From positions 173,739-237,738 of the forward strand of contig JACPKU010000006.1 of assembly GCA_016186915.1 (NCBI GenBank): a stretch of 64,000 nt of DNA, given 5' to 3'. Source of the stretch: Candidatus Doudnabacteria bacterium. Lineage in GTDB: Bacteria > Patescibacteriota > Doudnabacteria > UBA920 > O2-02-FULL-48-8. A program made the position numbers and the translations under genes. Shown here piece after piece: positions 2,034 to 48,845 of the stretch (its first letter is position 1; each line of letters opens with the position of its first letter). A model generated the notes under the pieces. That model did no database searches and was not told the origin of the DNA. It saw only the letters and a list, made by a program, of their open reading frames with translations.

Positions 2034-3029
2034 TTAGAATCCCCCGATGTTGGCGATGGGCGCTTTGATTGCCGGATGCGGATTGTAGTTTTCCAATTTA
2101 AAATCTTCGAATTTGAAATCGTCGATGTTTTTTATCTTGGGATTAATACTAATGTTCGGCCAGGGTTTGGGATCTCGGGATAGTTGTTCCTTGACCGCGT
2201 CGAAATGATTGGAATAAATGTGAACGTCGCCGAAAAAATGGATAAATTCACCGGGTTCAATCCCAGTGACTTGTGCGACCATTAGAGTTAACAGCGAATA
2301 ACTGGCAATATTAAACGGCACTCCTAAAAACAAATCTCCGCTTCGCTGAAACATTCCACATCGCAATTTGTTATTTACCACAGCAAACTGAAAAGTAGTA
2401 TGACAAAACGGCGGCACTTCATTCGCATTCCCCTTCGATGCCATTTGATAAATAAAATCCGGATTCCAAGCAGATACTACGTAAGATTTGCGGTAGGGTT
2501 TGTTTTTCAGACCCTCAATCACCCAACCAAGCTGGTCAATCTCTCGTCCATCAGAAGCTGGCCATCGCCTCCACATCCGGCCGTAGACGGTAATCAAATC
2601 TCCCCAATTTTTGACGAACTCGCTATCTGTGGGCTCGGCTTTGAGCCTGGCAATAAATTCGTCCTGCGTCAGATCGGGATGCGCGCCGGCCAGGGCCAGT
2701 TTATGGTATCGCTTCCAGGCCCATTCATCCCAAATATGAACATCATTATCCACTAAATATTTAATATTGGAACTGCCGGAAAGAAACCAGAGAAGTTCGT
2801 GTATGATGCCGCGAGTAAAAATTTTTTTTGTAGTCAACAATGGAAAACTTTTCGACAAATCAAATTTCATCATTTGACCAAAAACCGAACGAATGAACGG
2901 CGGCTCCTCGCCTTTCTTTTTATACTCCGCCAGAACTTCCGGCGTAAAAAATAAAGGCTTATCCGAGCCGTGGTTCAAGATATCTTTCAGCAAATTCAAA
3001 TATTGATACTCGGGGTGTTGGAATGACAT
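2034..3029 (-). CDS. thyA: Thymidylate synthase (ThyA type) with lineage-specific insertions
   Basis: The sequence FPLLTTKKIFTRGIIHELLWFLSG plus downstream ThyA blocks identify it. At 331 aa it is longer than the roughly 264 aa typical form. Confidence 0.85.
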   Translation of the reverse strand: MSFQHPEYQYLNLLKDILNHGSDKPLFFTPEVLAEYKKKGEEPPFIRSVFGQMMKFDLSKSFPLLTTKKIFTRGIIHELLWFLSGSSNIKYLVDNDVHIWDEWAWKRYHKLALAGAHPDLTQDEFIARLKAEPTDSEFVKNWGDLITVYGRMWRRWPASDGREIDQLGWVIEGLKNKPYRKSYVVSAWNPDFIYQMASKGNANEVPPFCHTTFQFAVVNNKLRCGMFQRSGDLFLGVPFNIASYSLLTLMVAQVTGIEPGEFIHFFGDVHIYSNHFDAVKEQLSRDPKPWPNISINPKIKNIDDFKFEDFKLENYNPHPAIKAPIANIGGF

Positions 3030-3040
3030 CTATTTATTTT

Positions 3041-3066
3041 ACATTCATACAGTCGTGTATGAATGT
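3041..3066. repeat. Palindromic hairpin repeat ACATTCATAC-n6-GTATGAATGT, copy 1
   Basis: It has perfect 10 bp arms and lies 2 nt after the CYTH stop codon. Two further copies lie at 3177-3202 and 19753-19782. Confidence 0.7.
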
Positions 3067-3067
3067 A

Positions 3068-3742
3068 TCAGTCTATATTAAAAGTTTTCTCAGTTCCATA
3101 ATAATCTTGCCAGTTCTGGTTATAATATGCAAACATGCGTTCCAAGCGATCCTGCGGCAACTCTTGTAATCCAAGCACATTCATACAGTCGCGTATGAAT
3201 GTCTTTGTGTTTTCTGCCTTGTCAGGATCACTTATGATTTTTTCGAACTCTGCCAAATAACCATAACCGGCGTTTTTATCAATACTGACGTTCATGTCTT
3301 TGTATTTAAACTCTTGGCGTTCTCTTGACCACTTGGCCTGATAGTGGAAACCTGAATCGAGAATCAATTTATCCAGTTCCTCCAAAGAGAGATCTACTTC
3401 GGATTCTAACTCTATTCTCGCGGTGCCGTTGCTTGAGGTGGTGTCATCAATGGATGCTTTGATGATTAATAAAACCCGGCCGTCACGATTGGCTGTTCTG
3501 ATAGAATAATCTTTGGCCTGCTCGCATAAATTTTTTAGGTTTTCTTTCTTTTCTTTTTCAACGTGCTTCACTATATTACTGTACAGTAATACAGTGTTGC
3601 TTCCGCTGAAGTAATGGTTTTGCTGCTTGTGCGGACCTAATGATTGAAAATTGGGATCGTCAGCTTTCATCTTGGTAATCAAATTATCAGCGTTATTCTT
3701 CCCGCCTAGTAAGCTTTTAATTTCTATTTCGTAAGCTGCCAT
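3068..3742 (-). CDS. CYTH (triphosphate tunnel metalloenzyme) domain protein
   Basis: The N-terminus carries an ExExK motif (AAYEIEIKSLL). Downstream there are acidic beta-strand motifs (RIELESE, LAEFEKI). Confidence 0.45.
   Translation of the reverse strand: MAAYEIEIKSLLGGKNNADNLITKMKADDPNFQSLGPHKQQNHYFSGSNTVLLYSNIVKHVEKEKKENLKNLCEQAKDYSIRTANRDGRVLLIIKASIDDTTSSNGTARIELESEVDLSLEELDKLILDSGFHYQAKWSRERQEFKYKDMNVSIDKNAGYGYLAEFEKIISDPDKAENTKTFIRDCMNVLGLQELPQDRLERMFAYYNQNWQDYYGTEKTFNID
3177..3202. repeat. Palindromic hairpin repeat, copy 2 (inside the CYTH coding region, about 37 codons from its C-terminus)
   Basis: The sequence is ACATTCATAC-AGTCGC-GTATGAATGT. It is translated as FIRDCMNV. Confidence 0.65.
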
Positions 3743-4289
3743 ATTTTTTGACCTATTGCCTGCTTGGAAAGCAGTTTACCATTAACGACGCATTGAATTC
3801 TGTTCCAAGATTTATCTGACTGTAAAATTTTCAAAGCCCGTTTTCTAGCTCGTTTCTGATGATCCAGATCAGCCTCGTGTTTGTCCTTTTTTCTTGATCT
3901 CATGAGCTTGGCTGAAATCTCCACTGGCATGTCAAGAAGAATCGTGATCTTGGGTTGAGGCAGTTTCAGTAAACCAAATGGATCATGTTTGAACCGGTGT
4001 ACCGGTCGAGTATTACTACATTTCCTTGGTTTAAACTTTTTATCAACTGGTCGCGGTATTCGTACCTGTTTAAAGCGTATAAAAAAGCAATTAATTTCGC
4101 GCCGTCAAATTTGAGCTGTCCGTTTAAATATTTTGCTATCAGCTTGCCGGTTGGCGTATGGTATCGGGGGAAAGATACCACTGCAACCGGATAACCGTGG
4201 TTTTTGAAGTTCATCCTTAAAAGTTCCGCTTGTGTTCCTTTTCCCGACCCGTCAATCCCTTCAATTGCAATAAGCCTTCCCTTGGACAT
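3724..4289 (-). pseudogene. tmk: Thymidylate kinase split into two out-of-frame ORFs (3966-4289 N-terminal part, 3724-3930 C-terminal part)
   Basis: The N-terminal ORF has the P-loop EGIDGSGKGTQ and a DRY motif, then stops. The C-terminal ORF (RSRKKDKHEADLDHQKRARKRALKIL...WNRIQ) resembles the Tmk LID/C-terminal region. The two ORFs are in different frames, and about 35-40 central residues appear to be missing. Confidence 0.45.
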
Positions 4290-4294
4290 GTTGC

Positions 4295-4879
4295 TTATTT
4301 TTTTCTTTTTTTAAACTCTTCGAAAAGTTTGGACGCTGAAGCCACTTTGGCACCGGAGTACTTATTACTTTTCTTTTTATTATACGGGGTCAAGGCCGGG
4401 CTTGATAGTTCTTCAAACGTAAACGCGCATATCCTCATGCCTGGATAAAGTGCTACCGGCATTACGCCCAAATTCCCTAATTCCAAAGTAGGCTTACCGA
4501 TCCAGCCCGGATGAAACACTGAAGCCGTGCCGTGAACAATGATCCCCAATCGGCCAAGGCTGCTGCGCCCTTCCACGCGCCCCACCAGATCACTGGATAT
4601 TTGCAGAGTCTCTACTGTAGTCACTAGAGCAAAGTCACCAGGCTGCATGATGAAAGACTCTCCTTTCGGCACAACAATTTCTTTCATTAACTTGCTGGCG
4701 TCAATCTTACTTTTAAGATCAATGTACGGATGGCTGGAATGTTGAAAAACTCGAAACCGGTTGCCTAAATGCAAATCGATCATACAGGCATCGAGTTGTT
4801 CCTGATAGTTCGGTTTCGGGGTAATTTTTATTCGCCCGGCTTTTATCGCTTGTTTGATGTCTTGGTCTGAAAGAATCAT
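4295..4879 (-). CDS. dcd: dCTP deaminase
   Basis: The protein begins MILSDQDIKQAIKAGRIKITP...IDLHLG, which is the dCTP deaminase / dUTPase fold. It is 194 aa. Confidence 0.8.
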   Translation of the reverse strand: MILSDQDIKQAIKAGRIKITPKPNYQEQLDACMIDLHLGNRFRVFQHSSHPYIDLKSKIDASKLMKEIVVPKGESFIMQPGDFALVTTVETLQISSDLVGRVEGRSSLGRLGIIVHGTASVFHPGWIGKPTLELGNLGVMPVALYPGMRICAFTFEELSSPALTPYNKKKSNKYSGAKVASASKLFEEFKKRKK

Positions 4880-4909: not shown

Positions 4910-5635
4910 TCATACTTTTCGGCTTTTCATAAAACCTCGCAGGATCGGGTAGTAAAGGTCGTCTTTCAGAGGCATGACAGTTTTTCGATATGTGGCTTTG
5001 TTGGTGAACCGAGTTTTGAAGCCGCGGATAATCACAATTGGCGTTTGTTCAGATCCCTCGCCCATCAACAAAACCGCCATGGCTGCCAATGGCTCTACAA
5101 GATTAGCTACAGTAACCTTCAGTTTACGGCCAAAGATATCAGGAGTCTTTCGGTAATCCTTTAGAGGTTCAAAACCGAAAAACCCAATTGATATTCCGCT
5201 AATTCCCCTACGTAGAGGTGTAATATGACTATCAGTCGCGATTAGACCCAACTTCTTAAGGCCGTGTTTGCGCTTAAGATAAGACCAAAACTGTTTAAGA
5301 AGCTTATTTGTATCTTTAGGCCAGAGAATATAGTGGCCTTTGGCATTGCTCTCGTCGATCCCGGCAGAAGCTATGATCGTGTGATGCTTAATAGTGAACA
5401 CAAACTTGTGTTTACTATTTGTAGGATGCAAAGCCACGTACTCAGCCTCTGATTGAATCAGTTTATTCTTATCTACCTTCGTATCTATTTTAACAGTGCG
5501 GCCTTGGTGGATGGCCAGGATCTTGGACGTGATCACCGCGATATCCCCGTCTTTGAGCTTAAGTTTGTCTAAGATGTCGTAGATTTCGTCTTTTGGTGGC
5601 AGGACCTTACGAGTTTTAACTTTGATGAATTGCAT
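4910..5635 (-). CDS. CofE-like (F420-0:gamma-glutamyl ligase family) protein of unknown function
   Basis: It contains DGDIAVITSKILAIHQGR, ASAGIDESNA, LIATDSH and LLMGEGSEQTPIVIIRG, which are blocks typical of the CofE/FbiB N-terminal domain family. Confidence 0.55.
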   Translation of the reverse strand: MQFIKVKTRKVLPPKDEIYDILDKLKLKDGDIAVITSKILAIHQGRTVKIDTKVDKNKLIQSEAEYVALHPTNSKHKFVFTIKHHTIIASAGIDESNAKGHYILWPKDTNKLLKQFWSYLKRKHGLKKLGLIATDSHITPLRRGISGISIGFFGFEPLKDYRKTPDIFGRKLKVTVANLVEPLAAMAVLLMGEGSEQTPIVIIRGFKTRFTNKATYRKTVMPLKDDLYYPILRGFMKSRKV

Positions 5636-18129: not shown

Positions 18130-18420
18130 ACAGGCATTATAGCATTGCGCATGGTCCTGATGAAATATAAATAAAAAAATATAAATAAAATATAAAAAGC
18201 GTACGTTGACCATTTTCAGCGATCGCTTTTTTTACTCAACGACAACGGAAATAAAATAAACAGCCTTTGGGCATAAACTTAATTAAGCGCCAAAAATATT
18301 ATCCCGGTTAAAACTGTGACCATCGTCACAACAAGCAATACCTCGAAAAAGGTATATCCCCGATAAATTTTGTTTTTTGGTTTCTGTTTGTTCACAAACG
18401 TGTGTATAAATATTATATAA

Positions 18421-18455
18421 AAAAAGAGGCGGTGAAGCAAGTGCTTGCCATCGCC
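18421..18455 (-). terminator. Intrinsic terminator closing the GC-rich islet
   Basis: The minus strand reads GGCGAUGGCAAGCACUUGCUUCACCGCCUCUUUUU. Confidence 0.6.
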
Positions 18456-18473
18456 TCGGGTGCTGACACGCAG

Positions 18474-19563
18474 TCAAGGAGCCTTCACGGTTTTAGGTCC
18501 TTGATCGCGCCGGTCGGCGAAAGGACCCGAAGGCCCCTCGTAGCCCACGTTCCAGCCGTTGCCAGACGGATTTGGCACCCTGGTAGGTGCCTCATCCGGA
18601 ACTTGATGCTCCGGACCACGTCGGTACAAGACACCGCCGCGCCCAGTAAGGTGGGCAAAATACACGTCGTCGCTCTCGTCGCTCATGCTTCCTCCAGTAA
18701 GAATTAAGGTGCCTCGCGCAGGTAGGATCAACGCGCATGATCGCTCACTGGCGGTCTGTGCGCGTAATGCAGCAGGAGGGCGAACTGCATCCTCTAAGGC
18801 GCGGCTCGCAGGGCCAGCAACCGTGAGAGGGCGACCGGAAGGTCGACTTTGACAGATCCTTATTCACCACGCGAGACACCCACCCAAACTATACGCCCAA
18901 ACAGCCAGCCGGTCAAAGCACTCCGGTGCGCTGTAGCGAACGCCGAACCTCTCCGTTCTTGACCCAAGCCCCGACGAACTGCGTCCAAATCAGTCGATCG
19001 GTGTTCGAGGTAAGGTCAAAAACCTTTCTCGCGAGATAGATCCTGAAGTCGAGACTGGGCCCTTCTGACTGTCCCAGTTCCATCAGCAGCAAGCCGTAGT
19101 CCTTCGGGTCGCACACGACGAGCACGTCACGCCAGTTTTTGGCTGCAGCCCGGAGCAGACTCGGTCCGCCGATGTCGATTTCCTCCACCAGATCGTCGAA
19201 ACCAATGGCTTCCCTCGCGGACTGCTCGAACTGATAGAGGTTAACCACGACGATGTCGTACGGATGGAGGCCATGTTGCTCGAGCGAGTGCATATCCGAC
19301 GCGTTCGCTCTCCGAGCGAGAATTCCGGCGAACACGGCCGGATGGAGCGTCTTTACACGTCCATCCATCATCTCGGGGAAACCCGTGACGTCGCTGATAT
19401 GCACGACTGGCACGCCGCCGGCTTCGATAACACGCGCCGTGCCGCCGGTAGACACCAGCTCATAGCCACGGCCCAGAAGGGCACGCGCCAACTCCACGAT
19501 TCCGGTCTTGTCCGTCACACTGATCAAAGCACTGGGCATCACTCCTCCTTTGGAAAAAGCCAA
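18474..19563 (-). pseudogene. purH: GC-rich (about 60%) remnant of purH: an intact IMP cyclohydrolase (MGS-like) N-terminal domain, with the AICAR transformylase part mostly deleted or frameshifted
   Basis: ORF 18913-19563 reads ALISVTDKTGIVELA...STGGTAR...GFPEMMDGRVKTLHP...VVVNLYQFE...IDIGGPSLLRAAAKN and then stops after the linker. A downstream frame (18474-18731 and its extension) weakly resembles the PurH C-terminus. The GC content is far above the genome background. Confidence 0.6.
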
Positions 19564-19640
19564 ACCTTGGCGGTCGGGCCTTTGTGTTGTGTCTTCAGTT
19601 TACTGCTTCCGTGATAAATTGACAAGCTTGAAAGATAGTC

Positions 19641-19673: not shown

Positions 19674-19750
19674 TGGCGTCCCCAGAAGGACTCGAACCTT
19701 CGACCTTCTCCTCCGGAGGGAGACGCTCTAATCCACTGAGCTATGGGGAC
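19674..19750 (-). tRNA. tRNA-Arg (anticodon CCG), CCA encoded
   Basis: The reverse complement is GTCCCCATAGCTCAGTGGATTAGAGCGTCTCCCTCCGGAGGAGAAGGTCGAAGGTTCGAGTCCTTCTGGGGACGCCA, which folds as a cloverleaf. Confidence 0.85.
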
Positions 19751-19752
19751 TC

Positions 19753-19782
19753 ATACATTCATACACGACTGTATGAATGTAT
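19753..19782. repeat. Palindromic hairpin repeat, copy 3 (12 bp arms, ATACATTCATAC-ACGACT-GTATGAATGTAT)
   Basis: It overlaps the stop codon of the NYN gene and abuts the tRNA-Arg 5' end. Its loop is inverted relative to copy 1. Confidence 0.7.
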
Positions 19783-35008: not shown

Positions 35009-35851
35009 CTATTTTACGATTTTCCAAACCGGCAAGTTTTGGGTTTGGTGCTCAAACCATTGATCAAACCCGCTGGTTTCCACCAAAATATGCTTAACCT
35101 GCCAAACTTTCGCTTCGCCTTGACCATTGGATTCAACTGGGTAAAGCAGATGATAGCCAAACCTGCTCACCACGATCTGGTCCAACACCGCGCCAATTTG
35201 GGCTTGGTCAATTTTATTAAACAATTCCGGGATAATTTCATGTTCCTGGACAAATCCCAAATCTCCGCCAAATTGCCCAGTCAGTTTATCATCGCTTTTC
35301 TCCCGCGCCAAGTCTTCAAAACTTCGTCCTTCATTCAGCTGCCTTTGAATATCCTTGATTCGATTAAATGCGTTACTGTTCATCTCAAAGTTTGAGTTGA
35401 AACGAATCTTTAGTGCCGCAGACAAAGCTTCGGGCTCAACCACGAATTTTTCAAACAATTTTTCCTGTCCGGAAAAATGATCCTTGACCAATTTAATATA
35501 TTCATCATTGTTGTTGGTCTTGAAAAACAAAAACTCATCGGTTATCTTTCCACTGTCATAATCCACCCTTAGTTTCCTCACCAGGCTTTCCATTTTTTTC
35601 GCGCTGATCAGTTGATCAATCACAGTTTTTTTGGAAACGGTACTGTCTAAGCTTCTGGCAATTTCAAACGCTTTATCTAACTCATATATTGATATCAGGC
35701 GCTCCCGGACCACCACGGCTGGATAGATTTTTTTGAAGGTTAAACTCAGCGGGTCATGAAAATCAGCAGCGTAGGCGATAAACGCAGTCAAAGCAAAAAG
35801 CACGAGCACTCCCAAAATAATTACGATGGTCAAATAAATCTTGTGCGCCAT
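35009..35851 (-). CDS. Membrane-anchored PpiC/parvulin-type peptidyl-prolyl isomerase (PrsA/SurA-like)
   Basis: It has an N-terminal transmembrane segment and the parvulin block GGDLGFVQEHEIIPELF...GYHLL. Confidence 0.7.
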   Translation of the reverse strand: MAHKIYLTIVIILGVLVLFALTAFIAYAADFHDPLSLTFKKIYPAVVVRERLISIYELDKAFEIARSLDSTVSKKTVIDQLISAKKMESLVRKLRVDYDSGKITDEFLFFKTNNNDEYIKLVKDHFSGQEKLFEKFVVEPEALSAALKIRFNSNFEMNSNAFNRIKDIQRQLNEGRSFEDLAREKSDDKLTGQFGGDLGFVQEHEIIPELFNKIDQAQIGAVLDQIVVSRFGYHLLYPVESNGQGEAKVWQVKHILVETSGFDQWFEHQTQNLPVWKIVK

Positions 35852-48785: not shown

Positions 48786-48790
48786 TCACA

Positions 48791-48845
48791 AAGGTCACCT
48801 TTGCAGTATGCAAAGGTGACCTTTGTATTCTTGTATTTTGTAGCG
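48791..48845. terminator. Bidirectional terminator: a 17 bp perfect stem (CAAAGGTCACCTTTGCA-GTA-TGCAAAGGTGACCTTTG) plus a T-rich tail, shared by the convergent trxA and the DUF458 gene
   Basis: Directly visible. Confidence 0.7.

Follow-up and report, generated by a model that had tools for sequence, protein, structure and literature searches.

Palindromes of 26–28 bp in Doudnabacteria as candidate operators of a TrpR/HisR-family regulator

The DNA analyzed here is a 64,000-nucleotide stretch of a contig from a Candidatus Doudnabacteria bacterium (GCA_016186915.1, JACPKU010000006.1, positions 173,739 to 237,738), referred to below as the window. It contains three copies of a palindrome, ACATTCATAC-N6-GTATGAATGT, two associated with a CYTH-domain gene upstream of thyA and one between an NYN-domain gene and a tRNA-Arg gene. 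Comparisons of sequence suggest that these palindromes are operators for a TrpR/HisR (YerC)-family regulator specific to Doudnabacteria, with a probability that we put at about 0.55. This reading is the best supported because the palindrome family brackets the gene for the regulator in every lineage examined and co-varies with the recognition helix of the encoded protein. Transcriptional control in the Candidate Phyla Radiation (CPR, Patescibacteria) is almost uncharted, and these bacteria cannot be cultured alone; the analysis provides a concrete candidate regulator-operator pair for the whole class Doudnabacteria.

Exact matches to the palindrome occur in the window at 3041–3066 (copy 1), 3177–3202 (copy 2), and 19755–19780 (copy 3). 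No match was found in 100 shuffles of the window even when as many as three mismatches were allowed, and the number expected by chance is 0. The three copies with perfect arms that had been recognized from the letters of the window alone (the sequence-only reading) are thus real. Allowing six mismatches adds a single window match, at 35327–35352, which is the background level (1–6 in the shuffles), and a search of the window for degenerate copies with up to six mismatches and spacers of 4–8 nt also returned background only. The window copies are therefore all-or-none. The arms, of 10–11 nt and perfect, surround an N6 centre to form a dyad-symmetric site with two half-sites. The centres are AGTCGT in copy 1, AGTCGC in copy 2, and ACGACT in copy 3, in agreement with the earlier description of a loop that is reverse-complemented between copies; the true loop is 4 nt (GTCG or CGAC) because A11 pairs with T16.

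The minus strand carries all of the genes adjoining the three copies. The CYTH stop codon (TGA, 3068–3070) precedes copy 1 by 1 nt when the copy is taken as a 26-mer and by 0–1 nt as a 28-mer, rather than by the 2 nt given previously, and the ATG of thyA (3029) is 11 nt further downstream. Copy 2 is in the C-terminal coding region of the CYTH gene, as had been reported, with 110 nt between copies 1 and 2 and a centre-to-centre distance of 136 bp. Between the NYN stop codon (19782–19784) and the core of copy 3 there is 1 nt, and 4 nt separate the core from the 5′ end of tRNA-Arg(CCG) (19750); contrary to the sequence-only reading, the core does not overlap the stop codon, and only the extended arms, which reach 16 nt with one mismatch, include that codon. 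The flanks were also said to keep their orientation while the loop is flipped. They do share the sequence ATCAG, which consists of the TGA stop codon of the upstream gene and the conserved T/A pair of the 28-mer and, in copy 3, itself belongs to the extended palindrome (CTCAT...ATCAG).

The family is not limited to these three copies and extends across the whole lineage. Genome and metagenome scans identified the same 26–28-mer with an AGTCGT/ACGACT centre in at least eight other Doudnabacteria or Patescibacteria assemblies, with the centre in either orientation and, in one assembly, with GTCGAC as the centre. Matches in unrelated phyla have random centres and are chance-like, and two scans of viral contigs, one for the main palindrome and one for a second type, gave no matches. 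The copy number is low, with three exact copies on a 949-kb contig and two on a 496-kb contig. In total, 37 unique sites were collected, about nine of them intragenic, including sites in the CYTH gene, prmC, a Wzy-like gene, and a racemase gene. Across 21 distinct variants, TAC/GTA is invariant and AC/GT nearly invariant. The candidate target genes include thyA, purN, purH, pgk, rplA, and a group of PsbP-like paralogues, so that they touch dTMP, folate, and purine synthesis, glycolysis, and ribosomal protein L1. The proposal of a coherent folate/purine regulon is weakened by the sites at pgk, rplA, recR, rplT, metK, prmC, a glucan phosphorylase gene, and the PsbP-like genes.

A gene encoding a helix-turn-helix protein of ~165 aa is flanked on both sides by palindromes in 12 of 12 related loci (counted as L004, L006, L008, L027/L035, L062, L063, L064, L069, L070, L071, and L072). 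The flanking sites are either of the window type, as in L004, L006, L008, and L027/L035, or lineage-specific variants (Table I). The downstream copy is always 0–8 nt past the stop codon of this gene, and the paired sites are ~530–550 bp apart. The encoded protein matches the Pfam family Trp_repressor (PF01371) and falls just under the cutoff for the NCBIfam family YerC/YecD (TIGR02531). In both sequence and fold searches, the first 100 residues gave matches to the TrpR-like structures 3frw, 3kor, and 3g1c. The AlphaFold model predicts an all-helical, TrpR-like structure with a recognition helix formed by residues 77–90 and a long helix from residue 92 to residue 125; the C-terminal ~65 aa constitute a helical extension. 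Clustering and Pfam assignments ruled out the possibilities that the bracketed gene is the NYN gene or a RAYT/TnpA transposase. Among genera that carry the identical 26–28-mer, the regulators have identities of 54–78%. A tblastn search found no regulator homologue within the window. One is encoded elsewhere in the same genome (P0082, HYW51_02935), with the same locus-tag prefix as the CYTH gene (HYW51_02320), and the two are listed on contigs of equal length (420,227 bp). A PADLOC scan for defence systems among the regulator, CYTH, and NYN proteins gave nothing relevant.

The bracketing palindromes differ between lineages in a way that is linked to the regulator. L062 and L064 have a common context (uvrA|regulator), as do L070 and L072 (ROK|regulator|scpB), and the palindromes differ within each pair of loci; within each of these four loci, both copies have changed together. 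The presence of different palindromes in a shared context, with both copies alike within a locus, indicates that the sites co-evolve in place. Residues 78 and 82 of the regulator, at the start of the predicted recognition helix, are hypervariable in an otherwise conserved helix and partition with arm type among the compared loci. (i) R78 is found with the arm AC(A/C)TTCATAC, which is the ACATTCATAC type. (ii) N78 with K/R82 is found with AC(C/T)ATCATAC. (iii) H78 is found with ACTGCAATAC. (iv) G78 with R82 is found with ACTGCGATAC. (v) S/T78 with K/R82 is found with ACTATATTAC. The regulator homologue of the window's own genome, P0082, carries R78, the residue that accompanies ACATTCATAC arms. 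These correspondences have the appearance of a specificity code relating residues 78 and 82 to four arm positions.

The YerC protein of Bacillus subtilis is HisR, a TrpR-family repressor that has lineage-specific palindromes of the form cacTTTA-N6-TAAAgtg as its sites and is often autoregulated (PMC9413887). The Doudnabacteria system resembles HisR and TrpR and their operators in protein family (PF01371; 3frw, 3kor, and 3g1c), in the dyad symmetry and N6 centre of the sites, in the ends of the sites ((C/T)AC...GT(G/A) as compared with CAC/GTG for HisR), in having a lineage-specific consensus, and in the site upstream of the regulator's own gene (PMC9413887), the last implying autoregulation. 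It differs in that the sites are 26–28 bp rather than 20 bp in length and are nearly free of degeneracy, the stop codon of the regulator is always followed by a second copy, the protein has the C-terminal helical extension, the targets are not histidine or tryptophan genes, and some sites are intragenic with compensatory changes in the arms. Of the functions that the sequence-only reading had offered for the palindromes, a protein-binding operator is thus the one best supported by sequence, through the bracketing of a TrpR-family gene and the co-variation with its recognition helix.

The positions of the sites relative to genes show a further regularity. Of the 17 sites followed by a gene, 9 are separated from the next start codon by 8–12 nt, and at five of these, including that of thyA, the distance is exactly 11 nt. 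The earlier statement that the palindromes are placed exactly at gene 3′ ends is half correct, the spacing to the next start codon being the tighter rule. A −10-like hexamer abuts the site on its upstream side at 7 of 17 sites as compared with 0 of 17 mirrored flanks (p = 0.017). One site in L062 sits within the sequence TTGACA-N16-TAATAT, and in the upstream copy of L070 an arm is mutated to TATAAT. Two other assignments, the right arm as a −10 element and TTCATA as a −35 element giving a leaderless thyA mRNA, were discarded since they fit only three or four of nine sites. Across the family, the two orientations of the centre with respect to the sense strand occur in a ratio of 11:6, which represents no bias. 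Gene direction thus does not dictate how the centre is oriented, and the flipped loop requires no inversion. The suggestion of an invertible element is not supported, and partner copies often differ in their centres.

In the operator reading, the regulator is predicted to bind as a dimer to half-sites of the form (T/C)AC-NNNN-ATAC on each side of the N6 centre. Binding at copy 1, which is 12–37 nt upstream of the thyA ATG, would repress transcription of the thyA-HAD-folA unit. The regulator might prevent initiation at a promoter in the terminal part of CYTH, or it might form a roadblock. Located 136 bp or ~13 helical turns upstream, copy 2 could cooperate with copy 1 via looping through oligomers formed by the C-terminal helix of the regulator, and the pairs of sites separated by ~530–550 bp could act alike. 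Copy 3 would place tRNA-Arg under the same control.

Some of the palindromes are held within protein-coding sequences. The entire CYTH protein is conserved in orthologues, and the C-terminal region between copies 1 and 2, for which the sequence-only reading had proposed this comparison, is strongly conserved; copy 2 therefore lies within a true coding region. Its centre, read on the sense strand, is GCGACT and not ACGACT, which retains the invariant Arg184 (CGC) where the consensus would encode His (CAC), so that the demands of protein and site are visibly balanced against each other. Nearer to the start of the CYTH gene is a second palindrome belonging to this superfamily (Table I). All but one of its 24 arm positions agree with the regulator-flanking type of L062, and it is also close to the L072 type. 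CYTH orthologues have palindromes at the same two internal positions (~nt 148–173 and 541–566) with arms that are different but mutually complementary, such that amino acids change on both arms and the symmetry is kept. A type-A palindrome is also present in prmC, encoding release-factor methyltransferase, at the same alignment position in two genomes (L017 2959–2984 and L054 872–897), where its codons contribute (H/N)IHT..YEC to a variable protein linker. The intragenic copies replace codons without insertion or deletion. In L065, from a related genome, palindromes occur in the thyA|HAD spacer (4781–4808, TAGTGCAATAC-ACTCGT-GTATTGCACTA) and the HAD|folA spacer (5520–5547, CACTATAATAC-ACTAGT-GTATTATAGTG); the arms of the former are those of the CYTH-internal site in that genome, which mirrors the relationship of copies 1 and 2 in the window. 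The CYTH gene represents a rare natural case of a 26-bp palindrome maintained within a protein-coding sequence, with amino acids changing to keep the symmetry, and bears on the evolution of overlapping codes in very small genomes. When the 21 distinct variants are counted together, 95% of cells are paired and 7 of 11 pairs have changed on both sides, a count affected by ascertainment in that several of the variants were found by a palindrome search.

Several observations weigh against a function of the palindromes as operators. The promoter matches at the window copies are weak and at chance level. At least five sites are between convergent genes and none are between divergent genes, most being between co-directional genes, and about a quarter are intragenic. 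About 35 sites are identical at all 26–28 positions, including the asymmetric centre, and their information content is far above that of ordinary operators. The stems extend past the core to a greater degree than expected by chance (1.68 versus 0.72 pairs, p < 0.0002) and some then run into T-tracts, which follow the extended stem at true 3′ ends such as that of rplT in L060. The co-variation of the arms also counts against operators because it is not required by a single dimeric regulator. Complementarity of the arms is kept between copies of one genome (the upstream and downstream copies of L063, and the four arm types in L065), and it is kept at the cost of amino acid changes in the CYTH-internal sites of the window, L065, L067, and L068. 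In addition, the CYTH-internal arms are unlike those that flank the regulator of the same genome, as seen in the JACQHB genome (L067 as compared with L063) and probably also in L065, if this is from the same genome as L008.

Many of the same features favor an RNA hairpin in polycistronic transcripts, which could shield the upstream mRNA from 3′-exonucleases, serve as a processing site (for example by tRNA-Arg), or couple the translation of the following cistron. An RNA-binding factor would then read the conserved AC...TAC/GTA...GT, and the basic C-terminal region of the flanked protein is a possible candidate for this factor. We regard the RNA hairpin as a possible but clearly less probable explanation of the family. 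It would account for the co-variation of the arms, including that at orthologous CYTH positions where amino acids shift to keep pairing, for stems that reach 18 bp and in some cases run into a T-tract (downstream of rplT, recR, and similar genes), for the location of sites between co-directional or convergent genes and never divergent ones, and for the many sites that are 0–10 nt past a stop codon. The RNA folding predicted for copies 1–3 is stable (−13.7, −15.0, and −23.8 kcal/mol; z-scores of −4.6 to −6.7), and positions that are not Watson-Crick pairs are more often G·U on the sense strand (~13 versus 6 by inspection), a difference that is not statistically significant. However, an RNA hairpin does not explain the constant bracketing of one helix-turn-helix gene or the link between the arms and the recognition helix. 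The loop, which is otherwise invariant, occurs in both orientations relative to the sense strand, which argues against recognition of an RNA loop, and sequence is conserved across genera beyond what structure would demand. The upstream copies in L070 and L071 lose pairing and keep a promoter-like sequence, and TrpR-family proteins are DNA binders (PMC9413887). Rfam scans of the whole window at the gathering threshold and of 2900–3800 under permissive settings identified tRNAs only and no match to the palindromes. A secondary role at the RNA level is nevertheless likely for sites that are operators: being perfect palindromes, they form stable hairpins in polycistronic mRNA, and some relatives have extended them into terminator-like stems.

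The palindromes share with intrinsic terminators the formation of stable stem-loops just past stop codons, and in L054, L060, and L069 they have acquired GC-rich extensions and T-tracts. The window copies are unlike terminators in having AT-rich stems, and no U-tract follows any of the three on the sense strand, as the sequence-only reading had observed in concluding that they are not classical terminators. The only match of a terminator scanner among them is on the antisense strand of copy 2, and canonical terminators are present elsewhere in the window.

A further alternative, which we consider unlikely, is that the palindromes form a family of small mobile or duplicative elements comparable with REP sequences and RAYT or with Xer/pdif modules. 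The bracketed gene and its two palindromes would be an autonomous or domesticated unit, and solitary copies such as the three in the window would be dispersed derivatives. Consistent with this, the unit of gene and two palindromes is found in ~8 different genomic contexts while the neighboring operons keep their gene order, solitary copies are perfect and not degenerate, the two copies around the gene may be in direct or in inverted orientation (L008 and L069), one variant copy lies beside an IS630-like transposase (L039), and a spacer between CYTH and thyA occurs only together with the palindrome (38 nt in the window as compared with 2 nt in L066). On the other hand, the flanked helix-turn-helix protein lacks a catalytic domain, and the genes beside it include neither transposases of the HUH or tyrosine type nor recombinases of the tyrosine or serine type. 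The copy number is tiny, intragenic copies exchange codons without indels, and no target-site duplications were seen. Different sites occupy the same orthologous location in different lineages, which indicates evolution in place.

In their architecture, an 11-6-11 arrangement with 11-bp inverted arms and a 6-bp asymmetric centre, and in the pairing of sites around a small module, the palindromes recall the core sites of tyrosine recombinases (dif, pdif, and loxP-like). In contrast with those, the two arms are identical and are not distinct XerC and XerD halves, and the centres of partner sites differ (AGTCGT in copy 1 and AGTCGC in copy 2; GCTCCC and ACTCGT in L065), which is incompatible with strand exchange. 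No recombinase gene is beside the 12 bracketed loci, and sites are located within essential operons, where recombination would be harmful. The likeness to REP/BIME sequences and RAYT is in the short palindromes within transcribed spacers between co-directional or convergent genes (apart from the roughly nine of 37 sites that are intragenic) and in the single-copy gene that is bracketed by, and co-evolves with, its cognate palindromes. The differences are that the bracketed gene encodes a helix-turn-helix protein and not a Y1 HUH transposase, that there are few copies per genome as compared with tens to hundreds, that the sites lack a GTAG-type 5′ tetranucleotide, and that some are in-frame in genes with no indels. 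The REP-like stabilizer or processing hairpin named in the sequence-only reading is a less probable alternative, favored by the lack of divergent sites, the extended stems, and the arm co-variation and opposed by the very low copy number and the absence of a REP-type transposase. Equally unlikely, in our estimate, is a REP/RAYT-like partnership of a new kind in CPR, in which a TrpR-fold protein would partner dispersed hairpins that it recognizes as folded nucleic acid and that spread, or are homogenized, between sites and even into coding sequences (CYTH and prmC), in which the codons of both arms would change in concert so that the stem is kept.

Template switching can perfect imperfect inverted repeats and in this way mimic compensatory change without selection. 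An origin of the palindromes by chance or by such a mutational process ("quasipalindrome correction"), followed by neutral persistence, might thus produce the changes seen on both arms, and yet it appears very improbable as an explanation of the family. No copies are expected by chance, an identical 26–28-mer is found across genera in which the regulators are only 54–78% identical, the sites keep their position with respect to start codons and the regulator gene, and the centre of copy 2 departs from the consensus exactly where the invariant Arg codon demands it. Two known operators were also considered. The NrdR box is a 16-bp sequence, acaCwAtATaTwGtgt, that occurs in tandem upstream of nrd genes with boxes ~31 bp apart; it was rejected because the sequence and the 26–28-bp architecture of the palindromes differ, copies 1 and 2 are 136 bp and not ~31 bp apart, and the targets are not nrd genes. 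The LexA/SOS box was rejected on sequence and association.

The CYTH protein of the window is identical to HYW51_02320 (P0121) from a Candidatus Doudnabacteria metagenome-assembled genome. Its gene is part of the conserved order nusG-rplK-rplA-tmk-dcd-CYTH-thyA-HAD-folA, and in the window thyA is followed by the HAD hydrolase gene, a gene for a protein of 128 aa, and folA. The features around the window copies and the palindromes that flank the regulator in related loci are listed in Table I.

Table I. Palindromes and adjoining genes in the window, and variant palindromes flanking the regulator gene in related loci
Feature	Position in window	Strand	Description
Copy 1	3040–3067		28-mer TACATTCATAC-AGTCGT-GTATGAATGTA; fills the CYTH-thyA spacer
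Copy 2	3176–3203		Within the CYTH coding sequence, codons 181–189 (TFIRDCMNV)
Copy 3	19750–19785		Core 19755–19780, centre ACGACT; between the NYN stop codon and tRNA-Arg
Second palindrome, same superfamily	3569–3596		CACTATATTAC-TGTACA-GTAATACAGTG; CYTH codons 49–58; ACTATATTAC type
CYTH-domain gene HYW51_02320	3068–3742	−	Two internal palindromes
thyA (thymidylate synthase)	2034–3029	−	First gene downstream of copy 1
NYN-domain gene	19782–20297	−	Stop codon adjoins copy 3
tRNA-Arg(CCG)	19674–19750	−	4 nt downstream of copy 3
L062 and L072 flanking palindrome			ACTATATTAC-TATCTA / TAGATA
L063 flanking palindrome			ACCATCATAC-ACTCCT-GTATGATGGT
L064 flanking palindrome			ACCTTCATAC-ACGACT-GTATGAAGGT
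L069 flanking palindrome			ACTATCATAC; centres AGGAGC upstream and ACTCCC downstream
L070 flanking palindrome			ACTGCAATAC-TTTCTC
L071 flanking palindrome			ACTGCGATAC-TGCGAC

Among the family members outside the window, an array of genes for PsbP-like paralogues (253, 368, 143, and 363 aa) is found in L025 (4070–7634) and L004 (1226–2041). Three of these have a type-A palindrome 11–12 nt ahead of them, and the fourth has the variant ACTATAATAC-AATCTT-GTATGATAGT; two of the type-A copies (4902 and 6070) have near-identical upstream flanks. The variant copy in L039 (351–376) has the centre ACGACC and is 113 nt upstream of the IS630-like transposase gene, which comprises two open reading frames (ORFs). 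Its flank has 12 nt (caaggcagaaaa) in common with the flank of copy 2 in the window. L039 does not represent a CYTH locus, and no CYTH gene is present there.

Two irregularities were noted close to the window copies. The thymidylate kinase gene, at 3724–4289 on the minus strand, is broken, with residues 1–104 in frame −3, residues 127–218 in frame −2, and ~22 residues missing around 3978; the orthologues are intact and ~225 aa in length. The break, in a dTMP operon that is conserved in other respects, represents either a pseudogene or an assembly error. The second irregularity is a 1.2-kb segment (~18400–19600) directly downstream of tRNA-Arg and copy 3, with a GC content of 56–60% as compared with ~43% in its surroundings. 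Of a purH-like gene, with 32% identity to a purH from Doudnabacteria, only the N-terminal ~175–216 aa are present, and the segment is possibly of foreign origin or a chimera of the assembly. An intact purH occurs in L029, with the family palindrome of the window 8 nt ahead of it.

Other inverted repeats in the window are distinct from the family. A near-perfect palindrome at 5391–5418, ATAGTGAACAC-AAACTT-GTGTTTACTAT, matches at 10 of 11 arm positions and is within a 241-aa ORF (4910–5635); its core is CAC/GTG and not TAC/GTA, which places it outside the family as defined. Unrelated long perfect palindromes occur at 48788–48826 and 28175–28214, one with arms of 18 nt (ACAAAGGTCACCTTTGCA) and one with arms of 17 nt (GAAACGTCTGACGTTTC). 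The canonical terminator-like hairpins, which are GC-rich and flanked by T-tracts, are at 23842–23871 and 27596–27631. Finally, a 69-aa ORF on the minus strand (21774–21983), just upstream of a tRNA-Met/tRNA-Asp cluster, resembles GIY-YIG nucleases in sequence (YVYVLRN...GILYKGSTNNLERRVEQH).

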